Assembly (NCBI GenBank): GCA_038314665.1
Contig: GCA_038314665.1_3677.1
Length of the DNA stretch: 64,000 nucleotides
Direction: 5' to 3' (one strand)
From: a phage
The notes beneath the pieces are model-generated. The model was not told the DNA's origin. It was given only the letters and a program-made list of their open reading frames with translations, and made no database searches. Positions 8,810 through 54,603 of this stretch are shown here, piece by piece; positions within the stretch are counted from its first letter, which is position 1, and every line of letters starts with the position of its first letter. The position numbers and the translations under genes are program-made.

Positions 8810-9073
8810 ATGAAACGTCTTGATCAGCTTAAACTAGTTCAGTACATGGCCTACAAAGTTCTTGAAGTCCAAAAAGGTAGCAAAAAAGAGGTTTGCGAGA
8901 AAGCATATAAGATCTTTACCCGTAAAAAAGATGATTGGATGTTACGCCAGACTAAAAAAGCCGATATCCTGGGGTACCTGGAAGAAGAGATCCGACTTGA
9001 AGAGCAAGAAGAGATCCGCCGCAGTGAGGCAGATTATCAGGCAGCCTGGGAAAACTGGATGAGTAACAAATAA
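8810..9073 (+). CDS. hypothetical protein (87 aa)
   Basis: ORF with RBS AAAGAGGTAAAC and hairpin GGGCCGGGAGGCCC in the leader. Confidence 0.55.
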   Translation: MKRLDQLKLVQYMAYKVLEVQKGSKKEVCEKAYKIFTRKKDDWMLRQTKKADILGYLEEEIRLEEQEEIRRSEADYQAAWENWMSNK

Positions 9074-9140
9074 TACAACAAGTTGCACGATCAGGGGGCA
9101 ATAAAGCCCCTTGATCACATAAAAATTATGCTATCCTTGG

Positions 9141-9169
9141 TTGACAAGGATCGGCAGTTTTGCTATATT
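9141..9169 (+). promoter_or_regulatory. sigma70-like promoter (TTGACA-N17-TATATT)
   Basis: upstream of the CDS at 9219. Confidence 0.6.
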
Positions 9170-9218
9170 CTTTTTTGAAGGGAAGTTGTAAGAAAATTAA
9201 CTAAGAGGTAAAAACACC

Positions 9219-9638
9219 ATGAACATTAAATCTAATAATCCGGCATATAGCTTTGATAACGCTTTTTGTCACGGTCCGGCGGCGAAAGGATTCGAAATCG
9301 ATGGTAAACTAATTATTGTCAATGTTGACGGGGAAGAGGTTGCAGTATATCCGGTGGCAGACGTAAAAAGCCGTTTACAATGCCGCATTGATGTTACCGC
9401 CTATCAGCTTGATCCGGTCCGCATAGTTGCCCTGGTCCTGGAAGAAGAAATTAAAGCCATGCACCATAGCAACAGGTTTATTGGTGACGCTCAGGATAAT
9501 ATGAAGGTGTGCCGCCATAAAGTTAATGAAGTGCTTAAAGAGTACGGTTATAAAGATCTGATGATCAAACGTGAGGAAAAATTCCGCTACCGTAACGACC
9601 TGGCAAATCGAATCTATGAAATATACGAATCATTATAA
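9219..9638 (+). CDS. hypothetical protein (139 aa)
   Basis: ORF with AAGAGG RBS; last gene of the plus-strand early block. Confidence 0.6.
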   Translation: MNIKSNNPAYSFDNAFCHGPAAKGFEIDGKLIIVNVDGEEVAVYPVADVKSRLQCRIDVTAYQLDPVRIVALVLEEEIKAMHHSNRFIGDAQDNMKVCRHKVNEVLKEYGYKDLMIKREEKFRYRNDLANRIYEIYESL

Positions 9639-9656
9639 TTTCTTAACTAAACTATC

Positions 9657-9685
9657 AGGGGCTTTAAAAGGCCCCTTTCTTTTTG
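9657..9685 (+). terminator. rho-independent terminator
   Basis: GGGGC-TTTAAAAG-GCCCC hairpin followed by TTTCTTTTTG. Confidence 0.7.
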
Positions 9686-10292
9686 TCTGTATTTCTCCTA
9701 CCACAAACGGCCCCACCTGGCAAGTGGAATAATTGACTAGCCATCAATCCCACACACTGTACAAACATACATGTAAAATAACTATTGCATAATTTTTCAT
9801 TGTGTGGTAGCAGGGCCATTTTTACCCGTTTTCTCTCTCAAAATTGCACGTAATGCCGCTATTGCACAAAATTTAACCTGATGCATATCTTCAATAGCTT
9901 GTCAACAACTAAAAATCTTTATAAGTCATACACTTACACACTCACAAAAGCGTGTTCTACGTGAAAAATCGAGTATAACTATAGCCGCCAGATCTCAGAA
10001 TTTACGTACGTTCACCATTCTATAGTCTGCTAAGTATTTATTCCAACCATAGAATAATGGAATAGTCAATACCTGCATAAAATAATTATTCGTATAAACT
10101 GCATAACATAAATCAGCTTAGGTGTCAACATTTTTCGTAAACAGCCTGAAATTATCACGGTGAGTTATCATAAACAGAGAAATCTTTAGTCGTCTAATGT
10201 TTACTGTACATTACTATACTTACTGGAATCATTAGATGACTAAGAGAAAGATAAGAAATAATTAACAATACAATTATTTTATATGTAACAAT

Positions 10293-10483
10293 AAGGCAAC
10301 TATGCAAACGAATGGCATGGCGCGACGGAGTCGCGACATAATATAAAAGCAGTAACCATCACCCCCGTGATAGTTTGTCTGCAATCTATTAATCAGATCA
10401 TAGTTGCCTTGTATTTAGTTAATCATGACATAACAAGCAAGGCAACTATAGATCTGCTAATAGTTGCCCTGCTTTTATATTAT
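10293..10483. repeat. nested inverted-repeat / hairpin cluster
   Basis: GGCAACTAT and ATAGTTGCC alternate four times; 15-bp inverted repeat ATAATATAAAAGCAG / CTGCTTTTATATTAT; palindromes CGCGAC..GTCGCG and GTGACTAAAGGTCAC; flanked by 20-bp direct repeats ATGCAAACGAATGGCATGGC (10303) and ATGCAAACGAATGTCATGGC (10609). Confidence 0.6.
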
Positions 10484-10629
10484 GTCATAGAAACACCCGA
10501 AGGGGTGACTAAAGGTCACCTGGCATAGCCAGTGAAAGATTATTAACCTGCTAATTGTCAGCTTATTGGCTGTTAGCTTGTCAATTGTTAACTTGTTAAT
10601 TGTTATCATGCAAACGAATGTCATGGCTT

Positions 10630-10800
10630 ATCATTTTTGTGTAAACAGTCAATCATGTAAATGATAAGTATGTGAACAGTTATCCATGTAAACTATTAGA
10701 TATGTAAACTATCGGTTATGTAAACAGTAAGAGCGTGAACAGTAAAGGGAGTGAATAGTAATAGCGTGAATAGTGACAGCGTAAACAGTCAGGCATGTCA
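10630..10800. repeat. tandem degenerate short repeats (ATGTAAAC / GTGAACAGT / GTGAATAGT units)
   Basis: at least ten units, roughly 11-14 bp period, visible by eye; non-coding. Confidence 0.6.
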
Positions 10801-11363
10801 ATTATGTTTAATGTGCCCAGTATGTCAAAGGTGTCATGTTATGTCACTATTGTGTCAGACAAGTTTTTCTCCTCTTTGTCAAGTGCTGCATGAAAAATTT
10901 ACAATCTGGTATGGTAGCATTTTTGCGGCCCTGTTTACATTCAGTTGTGTATGTATAATCCTTGTTGTGCGGGCGTTTGGACGTCTAGATGGTTGGAAGT
11001 CTGCAGGTCAATATCTAATCTATCGGCTGTTAACTATATCCCACACAAATAGTAAGAAATATAATTGTTATATGCGTAAACAGTAACTCATGTTATCAAT
11101 CCCTGTATGTATCGCCAGTGGTGCGCATAATGGGTATTATGTTAAATTGCCCGTAATGATAACTATTCTCACAATGATAGGTATTCTCATTCAATCCCAC
11201 AAGATAGGTTGCAAATGTTGTGCCACTGTGTGAACGGCCTCACCTATTAATTTGCCACACTGCCCCGATATTTGAGAATTGTTATAAGAATGAGAAGTAT
11301 TCCCATTTCGTCCGCCTGGCAGCACTCCAGTCGCTACCGCTTATGACAGGGCAGAGCTAGACC

Positions 11364-11512
11364 CTCTTCAGATATTTCTGGCTGACTCTTCAGGTCTGTG
11401 TGGGAAAAGCCAATCTCTCCGGCGGCGGGGAGGGGGTCAATTAAAAAATTTATGTGGTGTATGAAGCGCTCTTCAGGTAAGGCATGTATTATGGGATGAA
11501 ACCCTCTTCAGG
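11364..11512. repeat. cluster of CTCTTCAGG motifs
   Basis: copies at 11364, 11386, 11469 and 11504, with further copies at 11894 and 12544; interleaved G-rich GGCGGGGAGGGGGT (11421) and CCCGGCGGGGCAGGGG (11566). Confidence 0.5.
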
Positions 11513-12253
11513 TGATGATATTTGTGGGTGTGATATTTGCTGGAAAGTCAGATATGACGGGACTCCCGGCGGGGCAGGGGTAGTACAGACAGGGAAAATA
11601 TGGGGATGTAGTTGGGGAAATTGATCAGACAGGTGGAGTATAGTATATGTTACAAGTATGTTAAATAGAGAGGTTTAATATCTGTAAGATTTGTGTGTAA
11701 AATCAAAGACTTAAGTGGTGTTGTGGTATTTTCTATAAATAATTCAAGTTTAATAGGGAATATTTGTCAGAAAGGCAGGTTCAGGTTATTTAAAGTGGTA
11801 TTTCAGATGCATGTTTACAGAAGCAGGTAACCCCCCTCCCCCTTCGGCTACCATTCACCTTTTCCTCTGACTGGTACTTAAACACTTATTCAGACTCTTC
11901 AGGTTATCACCCATATATCATATGGCAGTGACTGGTGTCCTCCGGCCCCTCTTTCGTCACCCGTCCGCTTCGCCATGCTAATGCCATAGCCAGTGGTTCG
12001 GTTGTTCACCCTGTTCACTCAGGTGTATCTCCATACCCCTTCAAACCGAAGAGAACAGAAAACCCGAATTACTCGGTAAAAGAAAAGAGAAGAACTTAAT
12101 TTTATCAGGATAGGCAAGAATGTCAAGGCATGACTGCTCACTAAACAAGCAAACAGTCATGTGTGGGAGGTAAGTGATTGTGGTGGTAGGAAATTTAGTT
12201 GAAAGATGTGTTATGGGTGCTCCCAGCACTTTAGCCGGGCAATTAATTGTGTG

Positions 12254-12469
12254 TCAGTCCAGTGGTTCATCCCCTACTTCACTGAAATCGATGTTCATGG
12301 TCTCCTCCCAACCATCAATCTCAGCACCAGAGTAGAGATCTTTAGGACTTACTCCCAAAGCCTCAGCAACAGAGTCCATATTTAACACCTCTGGCAGGTA
12401 TGATTCATCGAATTCAAGGTAAATCAGGCCACGAGTGTTGTCAGCTCCACCAAATATTTCTATCTTCAT
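12254..12469 (-). CDS. hypothetical small acidic protein (71 aa)
   Basis: last ORF of the minus-strand array; acidic C-terminus. Confidence 0.5.
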   Translation of the reverse strand: MKIEIFGGADNTRGLIYLEFDESYLPEVLNMDSVAEALGVSPKDLYSGAEIDGWEETMNIDFSEVGDEPLD

Positions 12470-12590
12470 GAAATCTCCTCTGGAAATGAGAGTGTGAACA
12501 GGGTTTTATACGTCCCAATGCACAGGAATTATGCACGTTTGCCTCTTCAGGCCATGCTTTAGCATGAGGAACCTGTGTGGGCTCGGTGCT

Positions 12591-12896
12591 TCATAGTCTA
12601 CCACCCCTGAACTCTTCGTGCTCAGGCATAATAGAGAACCAGATAACTACGATGTCTTCCCACGTTAGGTCATCAGCCTCAGGATCTACCTGGAGTGAAG
12701 ATGGAGAATCTTCAGAATCGAAGTTTTCCTCTTGCACTGGCTCAGTCAAGGGACATACAGTCACTCCTTTGGATGTCTCTTCAGATGCATGTGTGTTTAT
12801 CATGTTCCACCCGTGAGTATTCCGGCAACAGCCGCTATGGACATAATGATCATCAGGATCACCACAAAAACCTCTGACAATGTTCTCATTGTGCAC
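12591..12896 (-). CDS. hypothetical acidic protein (101 aa)
   Basis: ORF only; start uncertain. Confidence 0.3.
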   Translation of the reverse strand: MHNENIVRGFCGDPDDHYVHSGCCRNTHGWNMINTHASEETSKGVTVCPLTEPVQEENFDSEDSPSSLQVDPEADDLTWEDIVVIWFSIMPEHEEFRGGRL

Positions 12897-13162
12897 TCCA
12901 TATTCTTCAGACTATGTGTGGATACTATCACTGGAGCGGTAATGTGTCAACAGAAACGCCGCGAGGGTTTGGTTAAAATCCGAGCGTATGGTGATTTGGG
13001 TCAAAACGGACGTGCGTTCTCGCTACGCTCGAAATAGAGAGTTGTTTGTAGAAAGCTCTTAAACGCTCTGTAATGAGATTATCTGTCCAAGGTATGCAAT
13101 CGTGCACCAGATAAAGAAAAGGACGCCACAGAGCGTCCTAGGTGTCTTAAATTTGATATTTT

Positions 13163-13474
13163 CTATACCCATGAGGGCTTATCAAGGTTGGAGTAGCTGA
13201 AAGGTGTCAAAAGGTGACTGTCAAAATCCCTCAAACTATCCAAATCTTTTTCCTCGTCCTGACACCATCTGTGCCTACATTTATTGTTGTAGTGCATGGA
13301 ATGCATAGCGTTCTGCAACTTAACAGGCACAAGTGATTCAGGAGTAGATAGTATTGCAGGGTATGCCAGAACCACCTCAAACAGTGGAAACACATCGAAA
13401 CTAAAGTCTACCTCTGCAGAGGTTGATGGCATGTAGGAGTATTTAGCCGCCTTTGTAGACATAATCCACCTCAC
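13163..13474 (-). CDS. hypothetical protein (103 aa)
   Basis: ORF overlapping the upstream stop. Confidence 0.4.
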   Translation of the reverse strand: MRWIMSTKAAKYSYMPSTSAEVDFSFDVFPLFEVVLAYPAILSTPESLVPVKLQNAMHSMHYNNKCRHRWCQDEEKDLDSLRDFDSHLLTPFSYSNLDKPSWV

Positions 13475-13797
13475 ACAGGTTTGATAATACCTTTACCGAA
13501 TAATTCTTCGTATCTAATCTTATCCGGATCCCACTCCTGGATAATTTCGAAGACAATATCCAACCCAGGGATAATCACTTCTCCAGTGTCAAGTTTGGCA
13601 AGAACAAAACCAGAAGGCTGAATGGTTTCCCAGTTGCGACGATTGGAATAGAAGACCTCGAAAATATCACCGACCTTGATCTGTTGATCAAGATGTTCAA
13701 GATTCTCTTTCATATAGACGCAGCGGATTTTTCGTGCAGGCCATAGACCACCTGCATCACGTTCATTCAATTCTTTTACAGTGATCGGCATACCCAT
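13471..13797 (-). CDS. hypothetical protein (108 aa)
   Basis: ORF with RBS; no domain recognised. Confidence 0.5.
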   Translation of the reverse strand: MGMPITVKELNERDAGGLWPARKIRCVYMKENLEHLDQQIKVGDIFEVFYSNRRNWETIQPSGFVLAKLDTGEVIIPGLDIVFEIIQEWDPDKIRYEELFGKGIIKPV

Positions 13798-38598: not shown

Positions 38599-39409
38599 AC
38601 CGGGTCTCCAAAATGTATTGTAGTTCTTTCTTGCCTATACTCTTCATTCCAGCAGTCTTACCTGCTTCTTCTTGAAAAGAAGAATAGCATTCAGCAAACA
38701 CTCTGTCAACACCGTCAACTAAAGATTTTATGAAATATGTAGATTCTTCAGATTTTGGATCATCATCGCCCAATACTTTTCCAGCGTTATACCCAACACG
38801 TCTTACACAGAAGTCGTAGTCATCCGGTGTGCTAAAAGAAAATAACTTATTCTCTCCAATCTCTACAGGATCCCTATTGCACGCCTTTTTCTCCCAAATT
38901 TGGAAAACACATGGCACGTCATAAGGTTTGCCATTAAGTAAAAACGAGTTCTTAGGGCACCTTTCGCTGTGGACAAGGTGCATAGACATGTCCAGTTTGT
39001 TTGCAAAAAATATTTTTTCAAATGTCCGTGGCAAGATGAAGGCTATAGCCCCGCCAAGCTCTAGCAACGATGCACAATGGTTAAAGAATTTGCAAGCTAA
39101 AGATGAATTCTTACCAAATGGTGGGTTACCTATGAAGACATCTGCCTTGGGATGAACCTCCAAGAAGTTTGCCTGAATGCATGGTATTGGTCCTTCAAAT
39201 TCAGGATCTGGTACTAGATCGTACGACAGTATCTCTGAAAATAGTTTTGAAAAAGAACCCCTTCCAGCAGAAGGCTCAACGTATGCACAATTCCCATACT
39301 TGTCTTTTACTCTACCAACAAGATATTCTGCATACTCAGGGTTTGTGTAGTATTTGTCGTTAGACTCTTTCTTGCTCAAAGTGCCTCCAAAAGGAAAAGG
39401 GAGGCGCAA
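38561..39409 (-). CDS. DNA N6-adenine methyltransferase, gamma-class-like (282 aa)
   Basis: motif I EPSAGRGSF and motif IV IGNPPFG; N-terminal YYTNPEY. Confidence 0.65.
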   Translation of the reverse strand: MRLPFPFGGTLSKKESNDKYYTNPEYAEYLVGRVKDKYGNCAYVEPSAGRGSFSKLFSEILSYDLVPDPEFEGPIPCIQANFLEVHPKADVFIGNPPFGKNSSLACKFFNHCASLLELGGAIAFILPRTFEKIFFANKLDMSMHLVHSERCPKNSFLLNGKPYDVPCVFQIWEKKACNRDPVEIGENKLFSFSTPDDYDFCVRRVGYNAGKVLGDDDPKSEESTYFIKSLVDGVDRVFAECYSSFQEEAGKTAGMKSIGKKELQYILETRYDQKHRLDQRTY

Positions 39410-54504: not shown

Positions 54505-54603
54505 GCTAGGTAAGCCCTTTGGCAAGGGCGAGGATTTTTAATCCTGAAAATAGACGAGGTAGTCGTTGAATACATAGGTGGTTCGATTCCACCGCCTAGC
54601 ACC
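54505..54603 (+). tRNA. atypical tRNA-like gene (99 nt), anticodon possibly TTT
   Basis: acceptor GCTAGGT/GCCTAGC and T-arm GGTGG-TTCGATT-CCACC are clear; loop TTTTTAA on a short stem; about 30 nt between anticodon arm and T-arm. Confidence 0.4.

Follow-up and report, generated by a model that had tools for sequence, protein, structure and literature searches.

A repeated, one-orientation motif beside the terminal repeat of a Vequintavirus genome, a candidate recognition element

The closest structural precedent for the locus described here is found in phage T7, in which 12 copies of CCTAAAG, at 175-340, lie in one orientation directly internal to the 160-bp terminal repeat. The E. coli promoter A0 (leftward, at 224) and the phage promoter phiOR (at 39229) stand beside the terminal repeats and point into them. 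The function of the T7 arrays, SRL and SRR, is itself unproven to our knowledge. A comparable arrangement is present in a 64,000-nucleotide stretch of phage DNA (NCBI GenBank assembly GCA_038314665.1, contig GCA_038314665.1_3677.1), which is called the window below. The 9-mer CTCTTCAGG, which reads CCTGAAGAG on the minus strand, is repeated there in one orientation beside the equivalent of a direct terminal repeat (DTR), and predicted promoters face outward toward that repeat. The copies are numbered 1 to 6 along the plus strand (Table 1). Unlike the T7 arrays, which are regular 13-bp tandems with related repeats at both ends, the window has 5-9 copies, placed irregularly within 0.15-1.5 kb at a single end, the other end has a motif set of its own, and there is no sequence similarity between the two systems.

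Other described systems share single features with the locus. The R1-R3 sites of lambda cosB and the pac hexamers of P1 form compact arrays, for which binding of the small terminase subunit is documented. As in these arrays, several copies of a short element lie here within about 50-200 bp of a packaging cut; unlike them, the copies extend to 1.2 kb, and several stand in promoter or terminator contexts. T4 middle promoters combine a MotA box at -30 with a sigma-70 -10 hexamer, and copies 4 and 6 are similar in that the motif replaces a good -35, 9-10 bp upstream of the -10. The motif differs from the MotA box in sequence, and two such sites in a genome do not make a temporal gene class. The boxB of lambda nutL is GCCCUGAAGAAGGGC. 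The core CCUGAAGAGG resembles it and is carried on a stem in other genera, but its loop is one base shorter (GAAG closed by U-A), the stems in the window are 2-4 bp, the strong hairpins have U-runs and are terminator-like, no boxA is in the right place and no N-like protein was identified. In T4-type phages, PeSL (promoter-early stem-loop) cassettes are found across hyperplastic regions. As with these, modules that pair a stem-loop with a sigma-70 promoter and resemble one another occur here between small genes of unknown function, except that the core is confined to one genome end.

Several common elements were compared with the motif by eye and rejected. For the DnaA box, TGTGGATAC at 12917 fits 8 of 9 positions and the other copies do not match. 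The sigma-32 -35 and -10 elements would have too short a spacer, a boxA-like CGCTCTT is present at copy 3 only, and Pho boxes have an 11-bp period, against the 10-bp phase of the TGTCA repeats at the far side of the DTR. Chi, CsrA GGA sites and Eco57I or EarI recognition sites inside the motif all fitted poorly.

The motif, its orientation and its conservation

A sequence-only reading of the window had counted six copies. Five are exact; the sixth, at 11364, is the near-copy CTCTTCAGA. The whole window holds eight exact copies, all on the plus strand, against 0.68 expected, and none of 100 shuffles reached eight; by our own arithmetic from the window rate, about 0.013 copies would be expected in 1.2 kb. 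The looser pattern TCTTCAG[AG] occurs nine times on the plus strand in 11365-12904 and not at all on the minus strand there. Because its matches run to 12904, the cluster reaches about 350 bp past the end first assigned to it. The extended consensus proposed earlier, [AC]CTCTTCAGGT, holds for three of the five exact copies, but copy 3 has a preceding G and copy 6 a trailing C. The interval had also been called non-coding, which holds only in part: a conserved gene of 71 amino acids (aa) stands between copies 5 and 6. The array itself was rejected as protein-coding, with 1-nt indels found among relatives.

The window belongs to a Vequintavirus, an rV5-like myovirus with a genome of about 137 kb, and the region 10800-12600 matches 122 phage records, all Vequintavirus, at 86-99% identity. 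An alignment of 13 diverse Vequintavirus genomes was used to measure conservation. Each of copies 2-6 is found unchanged at the orthologous position in 11-13 of them, and mean conservation over copies 2-4 is 0.984, compared with 0.909 for the non-coding background (permutation p = 0.026). The copies are spaced irregularly, at 22, 83, 35, 391 and 648 bp. Copies 1 and 2, and likewise copies 3 and 4, are local tandem duplicates, the latter pair sharing an 18-nt direct repeat (family D13). The spelling of copy 1 is unique to this phage, its 12 relatives having CTGTTCAGA, CTATTCAGA, CCCTTCAGA or CCCTTGGGA. A companion motif, TGTGTGG, follows many of the copies; the bipartite pattern CTTCAGR-N0-14-TGTG[TG] has five matches in the window against 0.45 expected, four of them in 11388-12905. 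The Klebsiella phage KPP-1 (Mydovirus) has four matches to this pattern, on one strand, beside its DTR. A scan of IMG/VR for the pattern gave, among the matches listed, single-match contigs only, and these were unrelated. The repeated CTCTTCAGG is a real, conserved motif in one orientation, and the original observation was largely right.

The motif had been proposed as a phage-specific promoter marking gene starts, to be checked by a search of the full genome. In the complete 137-kb Gotham genome there are nine exact copies, five in the 1.2 kb flanking the DTR and four scattered. Within the window the three scattered copies lie inside long open reading frames (ORFs) of 428, 327 and 197 aa, where the coding strand reads CCT-GAA-GAG or CTG-AAG, and they are taken to be incidental. 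No motif was found in other intergenic regions. Since the strays in the window lie within ORFs and other intergenic regions have no copies, the motif does not mark gene starts and is not a general promoter of the phage. The second suggestion, a recognition element, is supported: the motif is enriched, confined to one strand and kept at orthologous positions, and two further genera carry the core at the corresponding end of the genome.

These genera are Mydovirus, represented by KPP-1, and Seunavirus, represented by 4MG and SPLA5a. Their terminal zones are built as in the window, with convergent genes around 1.7-1.9 kb of largely ORF-free DNA. Profiles of four sub-regions of the window gave no significant nhmmer alignment to KPP-1 or to three mid-genome loci. 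Terminal loci of KPP-1, 4MG and SPLA5a, 21 kb in all, contain 11 matches to the pattern CCTGAAG[AT]G, 10 of them oriented like the genes that are read toward the terminal zone, and it is absent from 42 kb of mid-genome loci (KB57, SSE121, TH18). The 12-mer ACCTGAAGAGTC is common to copies 2 and 5 and to position 1743 of KPP-1, and copy 2 resembles TTGACCTGAAG[AT]GTCAGCCC of KPP-1 and SPLA5a, which is located just past the last annotated gene before the terminal region. A family of CCTGAAGAG elements is common to at least three genera of the Vequintavirinae; the family seems to be undescribed but belongs to known kinds of terminal-region cis-elements.

Table 1. Motif copies and other features of the terminal zone (window coordinates)
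Feature	Position	Strand	Remark
Copy 1, near-copy CTCTTCAGA	11364-11372	+	47 bp from DTR boundary
Copy 2, GACTCTTCAGGTC then TGTGTGGG	11386-11394	+	exact in 13/13 genomes; minus strand CCCACACAGACCTGAAGAGTCAGCC
Copy 3, CTCTTCAGG	11469-11477	+	exact in 12/13 genomes
Copy 4, CTCTTCAGG	11504-11512	+	exact in 11/13 genomes; remaining two CTCTTCAGA
Copy 5, CTCTTCAGG	11895-11903	+	exact in 12/13 genomes; within ultra-conserved block
Copy 6, CTCTTCAGG	12543-12551	+	exact in 12/13 genomes
Three weaker copies, TCTTCAGA	12709, 12778, 12904 (span 12709-12911)	+	among small ORFs
Companion motif TGTGTGG	11397-11403; also 12160, 12574, 12915	+	after many motif copies
-10-like hexamer CATAAT, copy 4	11488-11493	-	kept in 9/10 aligned genomes
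-10 hexamer CATAAT, copy 6	12528-12533	-	TATAAT in several relatives
Equivalent of 459-bp DTR	10858-11316		physical genome ends, concatemer junction
Boundary motif GGCGGAC	11310-11316	-	DTR edge nearest array
G-tract 1	11415-11438	+	local hairpin CTCTCC-loop-GGAGGG
G-tract 2	11562-11582	+	G-rich tract
C-tract ACCCCCCTCCCCC	11830-11842	+	G5AG6 on minus strand; edge of ultra-conserved block
Ultra-conserved non-coding block	11839-12107	-	about 11 variable columns across 13 genomes
Sigma-70 promoter TTGACA-16-(TG)TAAAAT	12099-12126 (12126->12099)	-	scores 11/12; faces block and DTR
71-aa gene	12254-12469	-	phrog_12108, function unknown; between copies 5 and 6

The terminal repeat and the ultra-conserved block

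The motif array sits in an ORF-poor zone of about 2.6 kb (9640-12254), with plus-strand genes on the left and minus-strand genes on the right, both transcribed toward it. The rV5 genome paper drew this zone as a grey box labelled "non-coding"; its authors expected bidirectional terminators there and did not find them, and could not locate the origin. The zone contains the physical ends of the genome. The Gotham repeat_region, 459 bp annotated at both genome ends, aligns without gaps to the segment listed in Table 1 (93.9%), and in our own mapping five independent records (Pr121LW, Aya, ECP2303, EdH4, Gotham) start or end at its first position. According to the Gotham paper, the terminal repeats are 459 bp long and packaging starts at the same point in all virions; the 514-bp DTR of KPP-1 was determined from coverage and PhageTerm. 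The sequence G[AG]CGGAC starts at window 11316 on the minus strand and at the DTR start of KPP-1 (3017 of locus L017), and is also present in the terminal zones of 4MG and SPLA5a; CTTGACAA-GAG-AGA-TTGT lies at the far end of both the window and the KPP-1 repeats. The Gotham alignment, the record ends and the KPP-1 boundary matches make the placement of the DTR solid, which means that the source record passes through a terminal repeat that has been collapsed. The first motif copy is 47 bp inside the DTR boundary. Copies 1-4 are 47-195 bp from 11316/11317; copies 5 and 6 are farther from the cut, at 580 and 1230 bp. Literature searches found no study of transcripts or termini in the region other than the papers on rV5, Gotham and KPP-1.

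The other DTR boundary is flanked by repeats of its own. Four TGTCA units in exact 10-bp phase (10823, 10833, 10843, 10853) occupy 10823-10857, and the last of them ends at the boundary (TGTGTCA|GACAAG). Relatives have two fewer 10-bp units, and on the minus strand the units read as -35-like NTGACA hexamers. Further out, at 10640-10790 (and 11076), GT[AG]AA[CT]AGT forms an iteron-like array of over 10 copies with a spacing of about 15-16 bp; the zone is enriched 86-fold in GTAAACAG, and related words are present in the terminal zones of KPP-1 and 4MG. This array may be an origin or a second packaging array. Within the DTR, at 11155-11307, there are three near-palindromes of the form AATGA[TG]A..TATTC[TC]CA, the last 9 bp from the boundary, and the KPP-1 DTR carries the similar AATGAGAATCATTCC (3414-3469 of L017). 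The segment 10280-10540 is AT-rich with nested inverted repeats: a perfect 18-nt pair, GACATAATATAAAAGCAG, at 10335 and 10469, ATAGTTGCC repeated in both orientations, and two minus-strand terminator-like hairpins, at 10507-10494 and 10375-10354.

Between copy 4 and the 71-aa gene lies a nearly invariant block. A query of 11828-12165 found at least 97.6% identity in all 118 genomes and at least 99% in 72, so that the block is more conserved than the adjacent 71-aa protein gene. Its variable columns are concentrated in two places, a single 5-nt patch and the loop of a CCATAT...ATATGG hairpin. The hexamers of the sigma-70 promoter at its right edge are invariant, while three spacer positions and three bases upstream of the -35 vary; at the other edge G5AG6 is followed by T-rich sequence in most relatives. 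The block resembles a minus-strand transcription unit about 265 nt long. Since it has no match in Rfam, does not fold significantly and gives no sign of covariation, it could equally well be a site at the DNA level, for example the true pac site. Its folding was not significant on either strand (z = -1.55 and -1.14), and RNAalifold found no compensatory pairs among 94 predicted pairs in the 13 genomes, which is explained by too little variation. A search of Rfam 15 over 9000-13500 (E <= 1) gave two chance-level matches far below gathering scores and none in 11300-12600, and no tRNA was found in the motif region. A 21-mer from the block matched one contig in IMG/VR. A 54-aa plus-strand ORF at 11935-12099 was rejected as coding, as its substitutions are, by our own reading, mostly non-synonymous. 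About 90 nt upstream of the block, TATAAATA, the T4 late-promoter consensus, is found at 11734-11741 (+) in a 58-nt stretch invariant in 10 genomes; the rV5 paper noted late motifs similar to this consensus elsewhere in the genome.

What the motif may do

The explanation that we tentatively prefer is that the core is recognised by a phage factor and that this factor controls the transcription which leaves the last gene cluster and runs outward into the terminal repeat, or concatemer junction. CTCTTCAGG/CCTGAAGAG would then be the conserved core of a small family of cis-elements in the last transcription units reading toward one physical genome end. The cluster copies lie between the last small genes and the DTR and are all oriented as transcription toward the repeat, and the outward-facing promoter of the block is conserved hexamer by hexamer. 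Recognition could take place on DNA, at about -30 of promoters with a weak -35, as would suit copies 4 and 6. On their minus strand CATAAT comes 10 nt after CCTGAAGAG at copy 4 and 9 nt after it at copy 6, and in the window and the Gotham genome these are the only exact-box sites of this kind. The promoter proposed earlier retains a possible local role at these two copies, on the strand opposite to that on which the motif had been written. Copy 6 is 74 nt before the ATG of the 71-aa gene, close to the 75 nt first estimated, and would drive that gene. KPP-1 has two core sites that read as sigma-70 promoters, with both hexamers and 17-bp spacers (TTGACC|TGAAGAGTCACGTCGAT|TATACT and TTGACC|TGAAGTGTCAGCCCTGC|TATTCT), and in SPLA5a the -35 is also TTGACC, with the core directly after it (TTGACC|TGAAG...).

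Alternatively, the factor may recognise the core as the loop of an RNA or DNA hairpin. KPP-1, 4MG and SPLA5a share the hairpin GGGAGCCUGAAGAGGCUCC (GGGAGCC-TGAAGA-GGCTCC; as RNA GGGAGCCU-GAAG-AGGCUCC), followed by U4CU4, with a folding energy of -16.2 kcal/mol (z = -2.9); it is of the strong terminator type and has the features of an intrinsic terminator. A second hairpin, GGGTTGAC-CTGAAG[AT]-GTCAGCCC (as RNA GGGUUGAC-CUGAAGU-GUCAGCCC; -12.5 kcal/mol, z = -3.8), stands just past the last annotated gene before the zone. In 4MG its stem is kept and the loop is GTAAACT. None of the window copies qualifies as an intrinsic terminator, a GC-rich hairpin with a U-run, and their stems of 2-4 bp fall short of the stable boxB type, in which about 5 bp would present a conserved purine-rich loop in every copy; strong stems are confined to the other genera. 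On the minus strand copy 6 can form the 4-bp hairpin GCCU-GAAG-AGGC and is the only copy nearing fold significance. In this phage the constant element is the core itself and not a complete promoter or stem.

A number of observations weigh against control of transcription by such a factor. The genus is shallow (about 86-99% identity), which makes conservation within it weak evidence. A -10 hexamer is present at only two of the five exact copies, with none at copies 2, 3 and 5. The -35 regions of copies 4 and 6, ATCACC and ATGGCC, are poor (3/6 and 2/6 matches), and neither copy is listed in a consensus promoter scan. Copy 2 has neither of the hexamers of its counterparts in other genera and is invariant nevertheless, and copy 5 has neither hexamers nor stem. 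The core has no consistent position relative to promoter parts: some copies have it at about -30, the one at 12904 has it at +3 to +11, and elsewhere it is in a terminator loop. The window stems, with energies of -2.0 to -6.1 kcal/mol (z of +0.1 to -1.75), are in most cases no better than those of shuffled sequences. The complementary arms of terminal CTGAAG copies average 4.2 bp compared with 2.2 bp at 148 control sites (p = 3e-8), which speaks for a hairpin, but this statistic counts orthologous hairpins repeatedly and is aided by the motif's own CU/AG self-complementarity. Finally, no candidate factor was found, and the neighbouring proteins have no Pfam domain.

The main rival, which we regard as possible but less probable than such a regulatory factor, is that terminase, probably its small subunit, is bound or positioned by the copies, which would fix the cut at the DTR boundary close by, much as the R sites of lambda cosB, the pac hexamers of P1 and the SRL/SRR heptamers of T7 flank cleavage sites or terminal repeats. 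Only 47 bp separate that boundary from the start of the array, and several copies adjoin the packaging cut. In 4MG a copy of GAAAATATCCTGAAGAGG (CCTGAAGAGG) lies 53 nt before its GACGGAC site. The repeats at the other boundary, four phased TGTCA ending at the cut and the GTAAACAGT iterons, fit two-site recognition, and T7 supplies the structural parallel. The irregular spacing and the distance of copies 5 and 6 from the cut count against a terminase array, and the copy nearest the boundary, copy 1, is degenerate in 12 of the 13 Vequintavirus genomes. In KPP-1 a distance of 200 bp separates the cut from the nearest outside copy, and the other genera have several copies between genes, more than 1 kb from the repeat, in terminator or promoter contexts.

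A rather doubtful proposal joins the block and the motif. The block, with its own promoter, its G5AG6 and T-rich end and copy 5 within it, may be an undescribed non-coding RNA of the phage made beside the packaging site, either as a primer for replication or DTR copying or as a packaging-associated RNA. The hairpins with CUGAAGA loops would then be sites for an RNA-binding regulator acting as an antiterminator of the N/boxB type.

It is unlikely that the copies are relics of duplicated terminator-promoter cassettes, with a core shared by descent and inter-cassette recombination and not itself recognised. Mydovirus and Seunavirus do have an orthologous "stem-loop plus promoter" cassette between small genes, with two CTGAAG copies, and in the window the tandem origin of copies 1/2 and 3/4 and the eroded stems and hexamers are what such a history would leave. 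Against decay of this kind, the core is invariant where hexamers and stems have decayed (copy 2 being exact throughout the alignment), it persists across genera without flanks that nhmmer can align, and its positions exceed background conservation (p = 0.026).

A replication origin or primer is quite improbable. Outward promoters, chiefly 12126->12099, would yield a purine-rich RNA with its end at G5AG6 and the T-rich stretch; this RNA would form an R-loop or primer, with the cores and G-tracts as initiator or structure-forming sites. The conserved promoter does face a near-invariant block that has this end in most relatives, strand composition flips at 11830, and the origin of rV5 could not be located by its authors. 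The skew change simply follows gene orientation, however, and there is no regular iteron spacing, no AT-rich unwinding element beside the cores and no identified initiator. The array region is G-rich, and a better iteron array (GTAAACAGT) is present on the other side of the DTR.

The G-rich and C-rich tracts of the sequence-only reading exist (11424-11437, 11565-11580 and 11830-11842), within 3 nt of where they had been placed. Their complementarity amounts to one perfect 10-mer, GGGGAGGGGG (11427/11832), and at least one such pair arises in 32% of regional block shuffles; the pairing is therefore no more than chance. G-tract interiors vary among relatives (A, CA, AT, GT, CAT) with no compensating change in the C-tract, and C-tract length changes are likewise uncompensated. 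The corresponding place in the other genera has, by our own reading, hairpins of different sequence, ACCCCTCCCCCGCCCGGAGGG in 4MG and SPLA5a and TTCCCCCGTGGGGAA in KPP-1. The long-range stem between the G-tracts at 11424/11565 and the C-tract at 11830, or the G-quadruplex, once suggested here is very improbable: the 10-bp complement is perfect, calculated duplex energies are -19 to -31 kcal/mol in 13/13 genomes and we read five G-runs in 11570-11618, but besides the chance-level, uncompensated pairing the G-tracts have local partners (CTCTCC...GGAGGG) and 11825-12095 folds no better than shuffles on either strand.

Neighbouring genes and the meaning of the terminal zone

The 71-aa gene is kept in 118 genomes, with a protein identity of mostly 90-95% (amino acids). 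A metagenome scan with the protein gave five close relatives only, and for this reason no deeper divergence was available for covariation. A Pfam search of six neighbouring proteins found no domain, and PHROGs placed the neighbouring proteins in families of unknown function only, apart from phrog_639, annotated "transcriptional regulator". The latter gene is 1.3 kb off and nothing ties it to the motif; synteny through it failed as an approach, the gene not being near the genome end in other genera. A BLAST search of 11317-12250 against 5,426 E. coli genomes gave no match.

Annotation of the zone differs among records. A small hydrophobic ORF, MRTLSEVFVVILMIIMSIAAVAGILTGGT, at 12800-12889 (-), is preceded by GGAG and has a promoter, TTGACA-17-(TG)TAGTAT, upstream at 12950->12922; many relatives leave it unannotated. 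Some submissions (OR449013, PP925834, PP554575, PQ511146) annotate 9-14 "hypothetical proteins" across the terminal zone, compared with 0-3 in curated records, which is probably over-calling. Elsewhere in the window, ARAGORN calls a 99-nt tRNA with a four-base anticodon (atcc) at 54505-54603, within a tRNA cluster; the Gotham record has a 97-nt tRNA-Lys in the same cluster, probably the same gene. Nineteen "Campylobacter phage" records in GenBank (MG0656xx) are near-identical Vequintavirus coliphage genomes, and their host labels look unreliable.

Most likely the CTCTTCAGG array acts locally, as a site of regulation or recognition in events at the genome end, and its mechanism is probably a local variation on known themes. 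With it, the "non-coding" box of rV5 gains an identity as a terminal control region in which the physical ends of the genome lie. The region has a testable anatomy: two boundary motifs (GGCGGAC and CTTGTC), a different repeat set on each flank, promoters facing outward, the CCTGAAGAG family and a near-invariant block of 270 nt. Vequintaviruses are widely used as therapeutic and biocontrol coliphages, and the locations of these cis-sites matter for starting and annotating genome records, for avoiding over-called ORFs and for choosing safe engineering sites.

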